From: Eledone cirrhosa | Lineage: Eukaryota | Direction: 5' to 3' | Assembly (NCBI GenBank): GCA_964016885.1 | Contig: OZ024746.1 | Location: 46,872,001 to 46,936,000 of the forward strand | DNA length: 64,000 nt | Part shown: positions 916 to 64,000 of the stretch, piece by piece | Numbering within the stretch: the stretch's first letter is position 1 | Layout: every line of letters starts with the position of its first letter | Position numbers and translations under genes: made by a program | The notes under the pieces: model-generated | What the model was told of the DNA's origin: nothing | Databases searched by the model: none | Seen by the model: only the letters and a program-made list of their open reading frames with translations

Positions 916-1119
916 TCCTTGTAAAATGAATTATGTATTTAGTCGGATATCTCTACGAATTGGGTGTCTTCAGAAGGGATAGTTAGAAGAACAACCAGTT
1001 ATTCAACCTGGCTGTAGTTGTGGCATTACTGTCGGAGATAGTATTCATCTTAAATTTAATAAATAGTCTCCCACACCAAAATATGCGACTGATCGCTTTG
1101 ACTGATGGATTATATGTGT

Positions 1120-1187
1120 ATGTATGTATGTATGTATGTATGTATGTATGTATGTATGTATGTATGTATGTATGTATGTATGTATGT
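1120..1187. repeat. (TATG)n microsatellite at the 5' junction of the RTE
   Basis: Direct reading. Confidence 0.95.
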
Positions 1188-3995
1188 ACACCATGTTCCA
1201 ACAAAAGAACAAATTCAAAACCACATGGATGCATCCTGCATCTAAGGAATGGCATATTTTGGACTACGTCCTAGTCAGGATGCGTGACAGACAGGATGTG
1301 CAGTGTGTTCGTGCTCTTGGTGGAGCTGAGTGCTGGATGGACCACCGCCTGGTACGCGCAAAAGTGAAACTAATCACTAAACGTAAAATCCGGGCTCCTG
1401 GTGTTGTCCTGCCCAAAAGATTGAATGCTGCTCGTCTTAAGGATAAAAATGTGAAGAGGACATTGGAAGAAGAGATGCAGGCTGCAGATCTTGGTGAGGA
1501 TTGGCCGACCCTTAAAAAGTCGGTTTATGATGTAGGCAGGCGTGTTCTGGGATTGGTGCAGAGAAAACATCAGGACTTGTTTAATGAGAATGATGTACAT
1601 ATAGAAGACTTGTTGGCTGATAAGAGGCGTACTCTGTCACGCTACTTGACCGCAAAACCACAGGAGAGGAATACGTTGCATGAGGAACTCAAGGATGTAA
1701 AATCACGTGTTAGGCGGAGTCTTTCTCAGATGAAGGATCAGTGGTGGAGTGAGAAGGCTGGTGAGTTACAAACTGCGTCAGATTCCAATAACACAAAGCT
1801 GTTGTACAGTCTCTTGCGTGAGGTTTATGGAACGTCTTCTTCTCTGGTGACACCGCTTCGCAGCAAGATGGCAAAGAACTTCTTCGTGACTCACAAGGAA
1901 TTCTACGACGGTGGCGAGAGCACTTTGATGATCTTTTGAATCAGCCGTCTGTCGTCAGTGAAAATTTCCGCAATCTCATTCTAGAAAGTCCTGTGAAAGT
2001 AGCTCTCGCAGAACCTCCGACGTTTGTGGAGGTTGCAGTGGCTATTTCGAAGCTGAACAGTGGAAGATCTGCAGGTATGGATGGCATACATGCTGATCTC
2101 CTACGATATGGTGGTGAGAGACTCCTGCAACATCTTCACTCTTTGTTTGGCAGGATATGGGCTAATGAATCCGTACCTGAGGACTGGAGAGATGCAGTAA
2201 TGGTGGTCTTGTACAAGGGAAAGGGTAACAGGAATGATTGTGGGAACTACAGAGGTATATCATTGCTTTCTGTCGTAGGGAAAGTTTTATGTAGGGTGCT
2301 TCTGGACCGTCTGCTGACACACATTGCAAATTGTGTTCTTCCTGAAAGTCAATCTGGTTTTCGTGCTAGACGCGGCACTACTGATATGATCTTCTCAGCT
2401 AGACAGCACCACGAGAAGTGCATGGAACAAGGCTTGGGTCTGTATCAGGTTTTTGTCGATCTGACAAAAGCTTTCTATACTGTTAACAGAGATGCATTAT
2501 GGAAGGTTCTCCAGAAACTTGGTTGCCCTGATAAGTTCCTTGCTTTAGTTAGGTCTTTCCATGACGACATGAAGTCTTGGGTTAATGTCGGAGGTAACAT
2601 GTCGGAGCCTATCTCAGTAACAAATGGAGTGAAACAAGGGGATATTCCAGCACCGACCCTGTTTGCCATATACTTTGTAATGGTTTTCTGTATTGCATTC
2701 AGGAATTGCGAGCATGGTGTTTACATCCGATATCGAACCCCAGGCAGCATATTTAACATCAGGCGCTTTGCTGCAAAGACAAAAGTATTTACTTCAATCA
2801 TAAGACACCTCTTGTATGCAGATGATTGCGATCTTGTAGCGCACACAGAGAGTGATATGCAGCACATTTTGAATGATTTTCTGACGCTTGCACTGCCCCA
2901 GGATTGACTGTCAGTCTCAAGAAAACCGTCGTCATGTACCAACCTGCTCCTGGTAAGCAGTACACTGAACCAAATATCCATGTGTATGGTAAACGACTTG
3001 GAGTGGTTGATCAGTTTGTCTACCTGGGAAGCACTGTCAATCGATACAGCAACCTTGACAGTGAAATCACACTTAGGATTAGGAAAACAAGTGATGCTTT
3101 CGGAAAGCTAGAAAGGCGACTCTGGGGTCGGCGAGACATATACAGGAGGACAAAGGTAAAGGTGTACAAGGCATGTGTGCTCTCTTGTCTTCTTTATGCC
3201 TGCGAGACCTGGGTCACATATCGACACCACCTTAAGCAATTGGAGCGTTTCCATCAGATGTGTCTCAGACGGATCCATGGCGATCACTGGAGGGACCACA
3301 TCAGTGATGTCGAGATTTTGGAAAGCTCTATGTGTGACAGTATAGAAGCTCTTGTGCTTAAGCAACGACTCCGTTGGAGTGGTCACCTTGCCAGGATGAA
3401 GGATTCTAGAATACCAAAACAACTCTTTTATGGAGAGTTGGTTAAAGGAAAACGACCGCCACATAAACCAAAAAAGAGGTATAAGGATTCCTTGAAAGCT
3501 TCTTTGAAAGACGCTAACATCTCTGCTGATACATGGGAAAATATTGCTGCTGATTGTAATAAATGTAGAAAGACTGTATATGAGGGAAAAGTTGCCTTTG
3601 AGGCATCTCGAATCGCATACGAGAAAGTAAAGCGGGATGTGAGGAAGGGCATCGTTGTTGCACTTCCAGACGTCGAGGGTCCTCCTATGGTGCTGACATG
3701 CAGCGTCTGTGCGAGACTCTGCCTAAGCAAAGCTGGACTCGAAAGTCATCTTCGCAGTCATAAAGTAAGACCAGTGGTTGACTACCAGGCTGCTGTTGGA
3801 GATGCTACTCATCATGCTTCCCAAACATATGGTAGAGAATGTAAATCAGCAGGAGGGCTCAAGCGACATGCAAAAGTACACGAACTCCAACCACAGCCGA
3901 CTATTCCCAGTGAATGTTTTGTTTGCCGACTCTGTGCAAGACATTTTAGATCATTGGCTGGGCTAAAAAGCCACATTCGATCGCAGCGCTGTTAG
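1188..3995 (+). pseudogene. RTE ORF2 split over three frames (ORF track 1124-1939, 1936-2907, 2904-3995)
   Basis: Contiguous EN-RT homology across frameshifts near ~1870 and ~2880; stop at 3995. Confidence 0.9.
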
Positions 3996-5273: not shown

Positions 5274-5304
<31 letters not shown>

Positions 5305-5376
5305 CATTATGAAGAGAGAAGAAACATTTAGATATAATTAGTAATAAAATGTATCATACCTAAACTGTTCCTAAAT

Positions 5377-5464
5377 TCCTCGACTACGTAGTTTCGTGGC
5401 ATAAACAAAAACAATATATCAAAGATATAGAGTCCTTGCGAGGTCTGCCGACTTATCAAGAGGA
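5377..5464 (-). ncRNA. Type I hammerhead ribozyme, U3-A8 variant (array unit)
   Basis: Reverse complement of the motif at 6952-7039. Confidence 0.8.
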
Positions 5465-5967
5465 TACCTCATTTTACTAGTCTCAAGAACGCGTCTACAC
5501 GACGTGAGAAAGAATCCCAAAAGGCGGAGGGGGAGATAGTCACGCGATATAACGGTCGAGAAACAGAGCTAAGCCTCCTATAACCACGAAAAAAATACCA
5601 CAGAGGCGGAGGGGGTATTCATATCGAGGCCGTAGAAGAAGTAGTGAAGAAGGCGAGAAGTATGAGTAATGGAAGCTTTCCAGTTGTCCCCACACTTCAA
5701 AGATTGCTCGACCAGAGGGAGTTATTAATACATTTAGAAACACACAGATACATGCGGACACACACATATATACATGAATGCATCCGCACGCAACTGTGAG
5801 TTAAGGGTGCCAACTTCACCGATGTTGCTCAATGAATGACTGGGACAGACCAATTCAGTTTGAACCAGACTGAACCAGTATCAGAGTTAAAAATACATTA
5901 TGAAGAGAGAAGAAACATTTAGATATAATTAGTAATAAAATGTATCATACCTAAACTGTTCCTAAAT

Positions 5968-6055
5968 TCCTCGACTACGTAGTTTCGTGGCATAAACAAA
6001 AACAATATATCAAAGATATAGAGTCCTTGCGAGGTCTGCCGACTTATCAAGAGGA
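5968..6055 (-). ncRNA. Type I hammerhead ribozyme, U3-A8 variant (array unit)
   Basis: Same motif, +591. Confidence 0.8.
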
Positions 6056-6951
6056 TACCTCATTTTACTAGTCTCAAGAACGCGTCTACACGACGTGAGA
6101 AAGAATCCCAAAAGGCGGAGGGGGAGATAGTCACGCGATATAACGGTCGAGAAACAGAGCTAAGCCTCCTATAACCACGAAAAAAATACCACGGAGGCGG
6201 AGGGGGTATTCATATCGAGGCCGTAGAAGAGGTAGTGAAGAAGGCGAGAAGTATGAGTAATGGAAGCTTTCCAGTTGTCCCCACACTTCAAAGATTGCTC
6301 GACCAGAGGGAGTTATTAATACATTTACAAACACACAGATACATGCGGACACACACATATATACATGAATGCATCCGCACCCAACTGTGAGTTAAGGGTG
6401 CCAACTTCACCGATGTTGCTCAATGAATGACTGGGACAGACCAATTCAGTTTGAACCAGACTGAACCAGTATCAGAGTTAAAAATACATTATGAAGAGAG
6501 AAGAAACATTTAGATATAATTAGTAATAAAATGTATCATACCTAAACTGTTCCTAAATTCCTCGACTACGTAGTTTCGTGGCATAAACAAAAACAATATA
6601 TCAAAGATATAGAGTCCTTGCGAGGTCTGCGGATGCATTCATGTATATATGTGTGTGTCCGCATGTATCTGTGTGTTTCTAAATGTATTAATAACTCCCT
6701 CTGGTCGAGCAATCTTTGAAGTGTGGGGACAACTGGAAAGCTTCCATTACTCATACTTCTCGCCTTCTTCACTACCTCTTCTACGGCCTCGATATGAATA
6801 CCCCCTCCGCCTCCGTGGTATTTTTTTCGTGGTTATAGGAGGCTTAGCTCTGTTTCTCGACCGTTATATCGCGTGACTATCTCCCCCTCCGCCTTTTGGG
6901 ATTCTTTCTCACGTCGTGTAGACGCGTTCTTGAGACTAGTAAAATGAGGTA

Positions 6952-7039
6952 TCCTCTTGATAAGTCGGCAGACCTCGCAAGGACTCTATATCTTTGATAT
7001 ATTGTTTTTGTTTATGCCACGAAACTACGTAGTCGAGGA
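6952..7039 (+). ncRNA. Type I hammerhead ribozyme, U3-A8 variant (array unit)
   Basis: Stem I TCCTC/GAGGA; core TTGATAA (6957-6963); stem II GT(c)GGCA/TGCCAC with inner hairpins CCT-cgca-AGG and TATATC-ttt-GATATA; GAAA (7021); palindromic stem III ACTACGTAGT; GUC triplet, predicted cut after 7034. Confidence 0.82.
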
Positions 7040-7542
7040 ATTTAGGAACAGTTTAGGTATGATACATTTTATTACTAATTATATCTAAATGTTTCTTCTC
7101 TCTTCATAATGTATTTTTAACTCTGATACTGGTTCAGTCTGGTTCAAACTGAATTGGTCTGTCCCAGTCATTCATTGAGCAACATCGGTGAAGTTGGCAC
7201 CCTTAACTCACAGTTGGGTGCGGATGCATTCATGTATATATGTGTGTGTCCGCATGTATCTGTGTGTTTCTAAATGTATTAATAACTCCCTCTGGTCGAG
7301 CAATCTTTGAAGTGTGGGGACAACTGGAAAGCTACCATTACTCATACTTCTCGCCTTCTTCACTACCTCTTCTACGGCCTCGATATGAATACCCCCTCCG
7401 CCTCCGTGGTATTTTTTTCGTGGTTATAGGAGGCTTAGCTCTGTTTCTCGACCGTTATATCGCGTGACTATCTCCCCCTCCGCCTTTTGGGATTCTTTCT
7501 CACGTCGTGTAGACGCGTTCTTGAGACTAGTAAAATGAGGTA

Positions 7543-7630
7543 TCCTCTTGATAAGTCGGCAGACCTCGCAAGGACTCTATATCTTTGATATATTGTTTTT
7601 GTTTATGCCACGAAACTACGTAGTCGAGGA
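7543..7630 (+). ncRNA. Type I hammerhead ribozyme, U3-A8 variant (array unit)
   Basis: Identical motif; cut after 7625. Confidence 0.82.
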
Positions 7631-8133
7631 ATTTAGGAACAGTTTAGGTATGATACATTTTATTACTAATTATATCTAAATGTTTCTTCTCTCTTCATAA
7701 TGTATTTTTAACTCTGATACTGGTTCAGTCTGGTTCAAACTGAATTGGTCTGTCCCAGTCATTCATTGAGCAACATCGGTGAAGTTGGCACCCTTAACTC
7801 ACAGTTGGGTGCGGATGCATTCATGTATATATGTGTGTGTCCGCATGTATCTGTGTGTTTGTAAATGTATTAATAACTCCCTCTGGTCGAGCAATCTTTG
7901 AAGTGTGGGGACAACTGGAAAGCTTCCATTACTCATACTTCTTGCCTTCTTCACTACCTCTTCTACGGCCTCGATATGAATACCCCCTCCGCCTCCGTGG
8001 TATTTTTTTCGTGGTTATAGGAGGCTTAGCTCTGTTTCTCGACCGTTATATCGCGTGACTATCTCCCCCTCCGCCTTTTGGGATTCTTTCTCACGTCGTG
8101 TAGACGCGTTCTTGAGACTAGTAAAATGAGGTA

Positions 8134-8221
8134 TCCTCTTGATAAGTCGGCAGACCTCGCAAGGACTCTATATCTTTGATATATTGTTTTTGTTTATGCC
8201 ACGAAACTACGTAGTCGAGGA
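8134..8221 (+). ncRNA. Type I hammerhead ribozyme, U3-A8 variant (array unit)
   Basis: Identical motif; cut after 8216. Confidence 0.82.
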
Positions 8222-8724
8222 ATTTAGGAACAGTTTAGGTATGATACATTTTATTACTAATTATATCTAAATGTTTCTTCTCTCTTCATAATGTATTTTT
8301 AACTCTGATACTGGTTCAGTCTGGTTCAAACTGAATTGGTCTGTCCCAGTCATTCATTGAGCAACATCGGTGAAGTTGGCACCCTTAACTCACAGTTGGG
8401 TGCGGATGCATTCATGTATATATGTGTGTGTCCGCATGTATCTGTGTGTTTCTAAATGTATTAATAACTCCCTCTGGTCGAGCAATCTTTGAAGTGTGGG
8501 GACAACTGGAAAGCTTCCATTACTCATACTTCTCGCCTTCTTCACTACCTCTTCTACGGCCTCGATATGAATACCCCCTCCGCCTCCGTGGTATTTTTTT
8601 CGTGGTTATAGGAGGCTTAGCTCTGTTTCTCGACCGTTATATCGCGTGACTATCTCCCCCTCCGCCTTTTGGGATTCTTTCTCACGTCGTGTAGACGCGT
8701 TCTTGAGACTAGTAAAATGAGGTA

Positions 8725-8812
8725 TCCTCTTGATAAGTCGGCAGACCTCGCAAGGACTCTATATCTTTGATATATTGTTTTTGTTTATGCCACGAAACTA
8801 CGTAGTCGAGGA
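8725..8812 (+). ncRNA. Type I hammerhead ribozyme, U3-A8 variant (array unit)
   Basis: Identical motif; cut after 8807. Confidence 0.82.
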
Positions 8813-9314
8813 ATTTAGGAACAGTTTAGGTATGATACATTTTATTACTAATTATATCTAAATGTTTCTTCTCTCTTCATAATGTATTTTTAACTCTGAT
8901 ACTGGTTCAGTCTGGTTCAAACTGAATTGGTCTGTCCCAGTCATTCATTGAGCAACATCGGTGAAGTTGGCACCCTTAACTCACAGTTGGGTGCGGATGC
9001 ATTCATGTATATATGTGTGTGTCCGCATGTATCTGTGTGTTTCTAAATGTATTAATAACTCCCTCTGGTCGAGCAATCTTTGAAGTGTGGGGACAACTGG
9101 AAAGCTTCCATTACTCATACTTCTCGCCTTCTTCACTACCTCTTCTACGGCCTCGATATGAATACCCCCTCCGCCTCCGTGGTATTTTTTCGTGGTTATA
9201 GGAGGCTTAGCTCTGTTTCTCGACCGTTATATCGCGTGACTATCTCCCCCTCCGCCTTTTGGGATTCTTTCTCACGTCGTGTAGACGCGTTCTTGAGACT
9301 AGTAAAATGAGGTA

Positions 9315-9402
9315 TCCTCTTGATAAGTCGGCAGACCTCGCAAGGACTCTATATCTTTGATATATTGTTTTTGTTTATGCCACGAAACTACGTAGTCGAG
9401 GA
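9315..9402 (+). ncRNA. Type I hammerhead ribozyme, U3-A8 variant (array unit)
   Basis: Identical motif; cut after 9397. Confidence 0.82.
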
Positions 9403-9752
9403 ATTTAGGAACAGTTTAGGTATGATACATTTTATTACTAATTATATCTAAATGTTTCTTCTCTCTTCATAATGTATTTTTAACTCTGATACTGGTTCAG
9501 TCTGGTTCAAACTGAATTGGTCTGTCCCAGTCATTCATTGAGCAACATCGGTGAAGTTGGCACCCTTAACTCACAGTTGGGTGCGGATGCATTCATGTAT
9601 ATATGTGTGTGTCCGCATGTATCTGTGTGTTTCTAAATGTATATATATATATATATATATAATCAGGATAGAACCAGTTTCAAACTGGAATACTCAACAA
9701 AATACTTGATCCTTGGGGTAGTAGAGTATGACTATGTTATAAAGAGCCGGGG

Positions 9753-62239: not shown

Positions 62240-62820
62240 TTTCACCCACCACTTTACCTACCATTTTACCCACTATGAGTATTTTACCCACAATTTTACC
62301 CAATATTATCATTTTCCCTACCACTTTACACACAATAATCATTTTACCCACCTTTTGCCCATTGAAATCGTTTTACCGACCATTTTAGCCACAATAATTA
62401 TTTTTACCCACCATTTACCCACAATAATCCTTTCTTTATTCGGGGTGATCCGTTTTATATTTGGGGGGGGGGCGTTTTTTATTCGGGGGGATCCATTTTT
62501 TATTTGAAGGGGGACGTTTTTTATTTGGGGGGATCCGTTTTTTATTTGAGGGGGGGGGGGGGGCGTTTTTATTTGGGGGGATCCGTTTTTTATTTGAGGG
62601 GGGGGGGCGGTTTTTTACCCACAATAATCATTTTACCGACAACTTGACCCACAATAAACATTTTACCCACCTTTTACCCACAATAATCATATTACCCACT
62701 ATTTACCCATAATAATTATTTTACGCACCATTTACCCACAATAATCCTTTTTCTATTGGGGGGAGGGTCCGTTTTGTATTTCGGGGGATCCGTTTTTTGG
62801 GGGGGGGGTTATTTGGGGAA
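62240..62820. repeat. Composite minisatellite: TTTTACCCAC-type units interleaved with GGGGGATCCGTTTTTTATTT-type units
   Basis: C-rich blocks 62240-62430 and 62612-62750; G-rich blocks 62440-62610 and 62757-62818. Confidence 0.85.
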
Positions 62821-63182: not shown

Positions 63183-63432
63183 ACTGAGTTCAAATCCCAC
63201 CGAAGTTAACTTTGCCTTTCATCCTTACGGGGTCGATAAAATAAAGTACCAGTAATGTACTGGGTAATTGCTGGCCTTGTGCCAAAAGTAGAAACAATTA
63301 TTTATTCAAATTTCAAATCCAGCCAAGGTTAACTTTGCCTTTCATCCTTACGGGGTCGATAAAATAAAGTACCAGTAATACACTGGGTAATTGCTGGCCT
63401 TGTGCCAAAAGTAGAAACAATTATTTATTCAA
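63183..63432 (+). mobile_element. Tandem duplicate (period ~122 bp) of SINE 3' portion
   Basis: Two near-identical ttcaaatcc..gtagaaacaattatttattcaaa units. Confidence 0.9.
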
Positions 63433-64000
63433 AGTAATCCAATTTATTTTACTAACTGGATTAAAAGAAATAAACCGTACGCAGCCATTGCTTTATTATA
63501 GTTTAGATTGTTACTGTTCTTCGATTCAGCTAGCTACTAATATTTCCATACAGACTTTTAGATTTTGATTATTTATTCATTTAATTTAGGGATATATTAG
63601 CCTGTGTTGGCACAGGCTAATATATCGATCATGAGGCACTTGTTTTCCTGGTGGCCCACGTTAACTAGATTCGGTCAATTGTTTTTTTCTTGAGATCATT
63701 ATCTGTATTGATTGATATATCCCAGAGTAAAAATTGTTCGAAATCTTTTCTAATACATTTTTCAACCAGCTCCTTTCGGTCGGTATTTCATAGGTCGGGT
63801 ATAAATGGAAGTACAAAAAAGCAGCAACTATCAAACGACTGTAAACATATTCTCTGGGCCTACGTGAGGATGGCAAGCAACGATGGAATTAATGTTTCCT
63901 AATCTGACGCTGCTTATTATATTATTTGTACTACTTCTTTGATTGACATAACCTCCCATGTTTATCCATTTGCGACACTCATTAGTGCTGCATTGTTTTT

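Follow-up and report, generated by a model that had tools for sequence, protein, structure and literature searches.

A 591-bp unit, tandemly repeated in the window (the whole 64,000-nucleotide stretch of DNA analysed here), carries a hammerhead-type RNA motif that is predicted, from its sequence, to cut itself. We consider it probable that each unit of a likely Penelope-like element encodes one type I hammerhead with a U3-A8 core and a predicted cut at 7034/7035, likely working as a dimer and with a pseudoknot. Comparison of copies shows the hammerhead motif to be real and the tandem element that carries it to be abundant, its cleavage being predicted. We infer that the tandem units are transcribed, and that the multimeric transcripts would be cut at 7034/7035 by a dimer formed of two neighbouring copies, with stems I and II held together by the pseudoknot. 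Cleavage would release unit-length RNA, which the reverse transcriptase (RT) and GIY-YIG endonuclease of an autonomous element would then copy into (TA)n.

Two diverging arms of near-identical units

The insertion occupies positions 5302-9642, as delimited by blastn of the unit against the window, by its ends and junction, and by the flanking repeats. It is composed of 591-bp tandem units that are 99.4-100% identical and arranged in two diverging arms, with (TA)n flanking both sides. The direct arm (6628-9642, plus strand) holds about 5.1 units, and its 3' end lies ~245 nt past the predicted cleavage site, running into (TA)n. The inverted arm (5302-6633, minus strand) holds about 2.25 units and ends ~80 nt past the predicted cleavage site, also running into (TA)n; the two arms share a 6-nt overlap.

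The original prediction had reported a TTGATAA core in all seven complete copies. The core was indeed found at the corresponding sites, namely 6957, 7548, 8139, 8730 and 9320 on the plus strand and 6050-6044 and 5459-5453 on the minus strand. Besides the copy at 6952-7039, identical ribozyme copies lie at 7543-7630, 8134-8221, 8725-8812 and 9315-9402 on the plus strand and at 5968-6055 and 5377-5464 on the minus strand, and the seven do not differ over 140 nt. Since these are near-identical units of one array, they count as one observation and not as independent evidence. An eighth copy (6559-6633, minus strand) is cut at the inversion junction and is without the leader, the 5' strand of stem I and the core. 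On its own, the heptamer TTGATAA occurs in the window at chance level (31 matches, with 28.3 +/- 5.3 expected).

Six-frame translation and the list of open reading frames gave the 591-bp unit only short frames, under ~90 amino acids, its coding capacity being judged by length. Two identical CCCCTCCGCC boxes stand upstream of the ribozyme, at 7393 and 7475, with equivalents in each unit; we take them to resemble GC-box promoter elements and thus a possible internal promoter. Elsewhere in the window, a LINE-like element at 1106-3995, which we assume to be RTE-like, contains endonuclease and reverse-transcriptase frames that are broken by frameshifts, with C2H2-like motifs at its end. The stretches 62253-62751 and 63189-63433 hold unrelated repeats: tandem ones of 21-60 bp and a SINE-like unit of 123 bp that is duplicated.

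The hammerhead motif and its relatives

Each complete copy presents stem I (UCCUC/GAGGA), the core UUGAUAA, a stem II closed by a G-C pair, GAAA, the palindrome ACUACGUAGU and GUC. The layout is that of a type I hammerhead, with UUGAUAA, GAAA and GUC in 7/7 complete copies, which fit the consensus N3-UGA-N-N8-A, GAAA and NUH with its Watson-Crick 3-8 pair. On the plus strand of the copy at 6952-7039, the 5' strand of stem I (6952-6956) is followed by the core at 6957-6963, in which U3 is 6957 and A8 is 6962, and by the 5' strand of stem IIa (6964-6969), which begins with G10.1 and has C6966 bulged. The 3' strand of stem IIa (7016-7020) ends with C11.1 and leads into the core GAAA (7021-7024). 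Stem III is a perfect 10-nt palindrome (7024-7033) and a predicted dimer interface, and the GUC triplet (7032-7035, predicted cleavage at 7034/7035 by established hammerhead numbering) precedes the 3' strand of stem I (7035-7039).

To evaluate the helices we used an alignment (A2) of 16 family-A rows, in which the window copy is joined by 15 out of 18 non-redundant representatives of the family, with young and old subfamilies included. The other three, L095, L119 and L169(-), are truncated or carry a deletion and were not used; L001 and the window copy are near-duplicates. Mean column identity is 83%. In this alignment 91.5% of 591 cells are paired, compared with 36-51% in slid controls, and 33 cells are double-sided, compared with 16.9 after shuffling (0/500 shuffles reach this value). 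Three helices surround the core, with stem I open-ended, and the fraction of paired cells is 93.8% in stem I, 96.2% in stem IIa and 97.5% in stem III. Stem I has double-sided changes at two pairs (CG/UA 7/16, UA/CG 5/16). The closing pair G10.1-C11.1 is G-C in 16/16 copies, a count partly fixed by the search patterns; most core letters are invariant by construction, because these patterns fixed them. In a large subfamily the bulged C6966 is replaced by U, which is the majority state among the first 100 of 949 pattern matches listed.

Gapped hammerhead patterns found four further families, B, C, D and E, all with a long stem II; the four patterns gave 31, 949, 263 and 2 matches, compared with 0, 14, 54 and 0 in controls. 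Family B is ~61-63% identical to old family A over 180-216 nt. Across families the mean column identity is 64%, and there are compensatory changes in stems I, II and III and in the pseudoknot described below. Four more loci (L137, L138, L143 and L200) carry hammerhead-like motifs with canonical cores and a long stem II of a different design. Matches of the architecture pattern in metagenome and viral sequences (25 and 2, the 2 duplicating metagenome records) had mixed cores and unconvincing stems and were set aside as chance.

As the original prediction had anticipated, standard models miss the motif: Rfam gave no match at the gathering score in the window, nor any at E<=10 on 6900-7100.

Stem II is predicted to form a long unbranched hairpin

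Stem II had been proposed to close an insert of ~44 nt with two hairpins, CCU/AGG and UAUAUC/GAUAUA, in a three-way junction. The 44-nt insert and both complementarities are present in the window copy, but they do not make a branch. The minimum-energy ViennaRNA fold of the insert is one extended hairpin beyond an asymmetric internal loop, which accounts for 0.61-0.82 of the ensemble. The branched fold reaches only -6.2 kcal/mol compared with -16.6 kcal/mol for the unbranched one and is therefore 10.4 kcal/mol less stable. The three CCU/AGG pairs have a probability of 0.0000, while those of the long stem have 0.96-1.0. The TATATC/GATATA complementarity is real; it belongs to the tip of this long stem (stem IIb, 6978-7010) and not to a separate branch.

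The copies agree with the folding. Across the 16 family-A copies, CCT/AGG is paired in 58.3% of cells and is unpaired in 9/16 and 11/16 copies at two of its three pairs, whereas 85.8% of the cells of the rival long stem are paired, with three double-sided changes. RNAalifold yields the long stem unprompted. Older subfamilies have AAA instead of AGG, the branched structure does no better than shuffles, and the CCU strand covaries with the leader instead. Folding models and alignment together refute the three-way branch, which we regard as extremely improbable. The comparison supports a stem II in which a short stem IIa passes through an internal loop into a long hairpin without branches.

A putative pseudoknot between leader and internal loop

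The 5' strand of the stem II internal loop (ACCUCG, 6972-6977) is complementary to a leader (UGAGGU) just upstream of stem I. By coordinates and pair counts, the predicted leader strand lies at 6945-6950, just outside the span 6952-7039 of the original prediction. In each of families A-E, a GAG ~10-11 nt upstream of the core can pair with a CUC that follows the core by 11-13 nt and belongs to the 5' side of the internal loop in stem II. Because the pseudoknot strands were not in register in a MAFFT cross-family alignment, the cross-family counts were made by anchoring on the core and the loop. They cover 123 distinct copies of families A-D and 4 decayed copies of family E.

Of the majority pairs in the pseudoknot, 27/30 are Watson-Crick and 30/30 pair when G·U is included. 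The majority pair in the fifth column is G-C in A and B, U-A in C, C-G in D and A-U in E, so that all four Watson-Crick forms occur. Only 2/120 permutations of the families do as well, a modest test because the five families are related. In family A alone, the helix is 94.8% paired and nearly invariant, with one double-sided cell. Copies of a subfamily in which stem I has become UUCCC, losing its CUC (L171, L176, L194), keep both pseudoknot strands; the leader thus follows the loop and not stem I. We conclude that the contact between stems I and II is likely this putative pseudoknot of leader and internal loop. On comparative evidence, the predicted pseudoknot would supply the tertiary contact between stems I and II that marks a type I hammerhead.

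The leader may also fold back on the 5' strand of stem I (6946-6956, GAGG-UAU-CCUC, -3.6 kcal/mol), forming a hairpin that would rival both stem I and the pseudoknot. Families B-D have a weaker leader hairpin of GAG/CUC, which one subfamily of A has lost.

The stem III palindrome as a predicted dimer interface

Stem III is palindromic in families A-D, with a length of 8-12 nt. In family A, the innermost pair of the palindrome is CG in 10/16 copies and UA in 6/16, and the next pair changes from AU to GC in 7/16. The two central bases are adjacent and unable to pair within one hairpin; their covariation therefore makes sense only between two copies. In isolation the stem III hairpin has no fold (0.0 kcal/mol), while its self-dimer reaches -12.9 kcal/mol. 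When only nested helices are considered, a double hammerhead of two adjacent window units has -43.1 kcal/mol, compared with -33.8 kcal/mol for two monomers, a gain of 9.3. The comparison of copies thus supports a palindrome that is kept even in its loop, which would favour dimeric cleavage, a known mode for such motifs (PMC4209133; PMC6765202).

Alternatively, each copy might cut as a monomer, with the pseudoknot steadying a 3-bp stem III and the palindrome being incidental. On paper, ACGU can close such a stem III; a single copy is all that many insertions in the genome contain, and pseudoknots raise the rates of hammerheads (PMC3088659). Against this stand the contrast between the lone stem III and its self-dimer, and the loop bases, which covary so as to stay self-complementary. 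We judge monomer cutting improbable and favour the dimer.

The 3-8 core pair

In the original prediction, U3-A8 was read as a compensatory pairing. This reading holds, since the 3-8 pair is kept and sister families of the same architecture carry C3-G8. The pair is U-A in 65/76 copies of family A, where the 11 exceptions include loci fetched because position 3 differed, and C-G in 21/22 copies of B, 8/8 of C and 17/17 of D. By sequence comparison, the 3-8 pair covaries between families.

The further argument, that covariation among the copies reveals selection on catalysis, finds no basis in the window: the seven copies show none, and no C3+G8 double occurs among the genome-wide variants of family A. 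These variants comprise 12 single changes at position 3, 14 at position 8 and 11 at the free position 7. Variants at positions 3 and 8 are therefore no rarer than at position 7, which leaves no selection signal within the family, and by this measure the changes at positions 3 and 8 in family A are neutral decay.

Family B gives a different picture at the same pair. Among the 100 of 101 matches listed, 58 are C3-G8, 29 U3·G8, 12 U3-A8 and 1 C3-A8 (Fisher p 7e-5 from a hand count, though the copies are not independent). A tree built without the core was reduced to 61 rows by length and flank filters, with one long-branch row removed, and was rooted on C and D. In it, a clade with 100/100 support unites 16 U3·G8 with 7 U3-A8 copies, the basal branches being U3·G8, and two further U3·G8 copies fall among C3-G8 copies. 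In an unrooted tree of 64 rows, 10/12 U3-A8 copies lie inside U3·G8; the bootstraps of both trees are unsettled, and U3-A8 takes 3-4 changes on them. Family B likely passed from C-G through U·G to U-A by way of an amplified U3·G8 subfamily.

The U3-A8 core was already known. It was reported in nature in 2011 (Perreault 2011, PMC3088659) and is found in ~1,300 motifs of Schistosoma Penelope-like elements (Cervera 2014, PMC4209133), and an autonomous element in the present genome also has it. U3-A8 is cited as active in vitro (PMC3088659). In a full double-mutant scan of a type III hammerhead, only G3-C8 rescued activity (PMC9901934). One natural U3·G8 core, the Saccoglossus UUGAAGA, appears in Fig. 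S3 of PMC4209133. The literature searched contained no natural U3·G8 intermediate clade, and an earlier description is possible. The new parts are the pseudoknotted long stem II and the stepwise swap of the core pair.

Is cleavage needed?

The evidence on the core pair also bears on whether catalysis matters. The fold could be real while catalysis is weak or dispensable, the structure being recognised by a Penelope-like protein or cutting only when protein-bound. The amplification of the U3·G8 clade in family B favours this, as it means that a Watson-Crick 3-8 pair is not strictly needed for spread, and so does the lack of depletion at positions 3 and 8 in family A. Penelope hammerheads are slow in vitro (PMC4209133), and 8/9 frog retrozyme dimers did not cleave (10.64898/2026.07.22.740005). 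Protein is required for cleavage by the anole hammerhead, and mutants of this hammerhead remain able to insert; in vitro, hammerhead mutations had no effect on Penelope-like insertion (PMC11167929). On the other side, the return to a Watson-Crick pair, with U3-A8 re-formed and amplified, and the near-absence of C3-A8 suggest selection, although the spread of the wobble core points the other way. Compensatory changes in all three stems and the pseudoknot, at the cross-family identity given above, also speak against dispensable catalysis, and the 3-8 pair belongs to the active hammerhead fold (PMC3088659, PMC9901934). We therefore hold weak or dispensable catalysis to be unlikely, if less so than monomer cutting, and retain the cleaving hammerhead as the preferred reading.

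Taking these lines together, we lean slightly towards an undescribed type I subtype that cleaves as a dimer, has a pseudoknotted long stem II, comprises at least five families missed by Rfam and preserves the path C-G to U·G to U-A. If confirmed, a pseudoknot contact together with a dimer interface would give animal hammerheads a peripheral arrangement of a new kind, which could let these motifs outpace the slow Penelope ones. If the path is true, a wobble core pair is a viable natural intermediate in the exchange of the catalytic 3-8 pair. Copies of family B with C3-G8, U3·G8 and U3-A8 cores are nearly identical in context and form a natural series with which core-pair exchange and the need of Penelope mobilisation for cleavage can be tested.

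A likely non-autonomous Penelope-like element

Copies in the 3.0 Gb genome were counted by exact patterns. Searching with a 19-mer of the motif gave 7,634 exact matches, and its control gave 0; copies of the element are dispersed across contigs. If these are confirmed as hammerheads, thousands of them in one animal genome escape Rfam, so counts of ribozymes and retrozymes in animals are likely too low.

The insertions have stereotyped ends. Of 45 distinct arm ends (loci L001-L042), 24 lie ~+80 and 19 ~+245 past the cut site, with 2 elsewhere, and 39/45 run into (TA)n. In inverted insertions, typically one arm ends near +80 and the other near +245. In an independent run of contigs (X2), the same two 3' ends show up as loose ends. 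Two near-identical inverted insertions lie ~2.55 kb apart at L025-L030 (G000:C1:19618715-19625251), which suggests local duplication after insertion.

Inverted truncated copies, a tail on one end and a (TA)n bias are described for Penelope-like elements (10.1101/2021.04.23.441226), and the one-end tail has been explained by two reverse-transcription start sites (PMC11167929). In the element analysed here, one copy is inverted and 5'-truncated, only one end bears a tail, and the insertion lies in a microsatellite. It also has sequence features of a retrozyme, namely non-coding tandem units with one type I hammerhead each and many dispersed copies. From these sequence features, the 591-bp element is likely a non-autonomous Penelope-like retroelement. 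A satellite array amplified by DNA recombination, with a chance likeness to a hammerhead, would agree with the identity of over 99% between units and with the lack of an Rfam match. It is hardly credible in view of copies that are dispersed over contigs, end at fixed 3' positions, target (TA)n and have inverted arms, of helices that covary, and of a gapped hammerhead pattern with 31 matches and none in the control.

When the unit 6657-7247 was compared with 63 aligned pieces on the ribozyme strand, A>G changes were seen at 22/124 A sites outside stem IIb and at 3/8 A sites within it. Same-strand T>C changes were seen at 18/196 T sites outside stem IIb, and C>T and G>A were balanced (0.18, 0.19). 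The excess of A>G over T>C is a weak hint of RNA editing fixed by retrotransposition.

A candidate helper

GIY-YIG elements are abundant in the genome, with 10,596 candidates, of which 150 were scored. Fifty loci were examined, 30 of +/-1.5 kb and 20 of 9-10 kb around the matches. One family that combines RT and GIY-YIG, found in 6/50 of these loci, carries a UUGAAAA (U3-A8) core with a short stem II; this minimal hammerhead lies in a terminal repeat and has a palindromic stem III. The 3' ends of the family, at ~+82 and ~+145, both run into (TA)n. The six loci are L073 (minus strand), L057, L074, L078, L082 and L084, and L073 has a frame of 938 amino acids. The Cys-x4-Cys-x2-Cys linker of the family fits the description of Neptune or Nematis in 10.1101/2021.04.23.441226.

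No autonomous partner with the 591-bp unit or the long stem II was found in the 50 GIY-YIG loci drawn from the 10,596 candidates, and a local alignment of the post-cleavage region with L073 did not rise above shuffles. As homology to the unit was undetected, the RT and GIY-YIG family is a candidate helper only. Among the protein matches listed, those near hammerhead loci looked like separate neighbouring insertions; at L068, one unit lies near a GIY-YIG match, but a microsatellite separates the two. Five GIY-YIG loci (L083, L067, L078, L091 and L080) contain canonical CUGA(U/C)GA hammerhead-like motifs, and the motif in L083 occurs twice, 511 nt apart.

Comparison with known systems

The element resembles animal non-LTR retrozymes (PMC7229834; 10.64898/2026.07.22.740005) in its non-coding tandems with one type I hammerhead per unit, its thousands of copies and its co-occurrence with Penelope-like elements. 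The unit length is 591 bp here, ~300 in PMC7229834 and 51-972 in 10.64898/2026.07.22.740005. The core and stem II differ from those of the non-LTR retrozymes, and inverted arms with two fixed ends are absent from the descriptions compared. Insertions of Penelope-like elements (10.1101/2021.04.23.441226; PMC11167929) likewise come as partial tandems in AT-rich or (TA)n targets, with one copy inverted and 5'-truncated and with a tail at one of the two ends. The two ends are ~165 nt apart here, compared with 30-40 in Penelope-like elements, and the present unit is without an RT or endonuclease frame.

The PK hammerhead (Zhan 2024, PMC11300833) also joins a hammerhead core to a 6-bp pseudoknot helix, but it differs because its pseudoknot replaces helix II. 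Assignment to this pistol-like class was rejected: stem IIa is present and paired as given above, G10.1-C11.1 is kept, and the pseudoknot is peripheral.

Among hammerheads of retroelements, those of the Schistosoma Cercyon Penelope-like elements (PMC4209133) are alike in being type I with a short stem I, a palindromic stem III and a predicted dimer, G10.1-C11.1, U3-A8 and opposite-strand pairs. In the examples of Fig. S3 of that paper, the terminal loops II are short and A9 is followed by an extra base, neither of which is the case here. Compared with the same source, stem II here runs via an internal loop into a hairpin of up to ~15 bp, and a pseudoknot is supported.

All three hammerhead types have known examples of a pseudoknot that joins stems I and II. 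The type I hammerheads of Perreault 2011 (PMC3088659) share the pseudoknot as the contact between these stems and the natural U3-A8 covariation; many of them have a very short stem II, and the pseudoknot statistics of that study left highly repetitive type I motifs aside. The literature searched describes no animal retroelement in which a long stem II bears an internal-loop pseudoknot, and an earlier description is possible. The motif analysed here departs from those of PMC3088659 in that one strand of its predicted pseudoknot comes from an internal loop within a long stem II, and in having a palindromic stem III as well.
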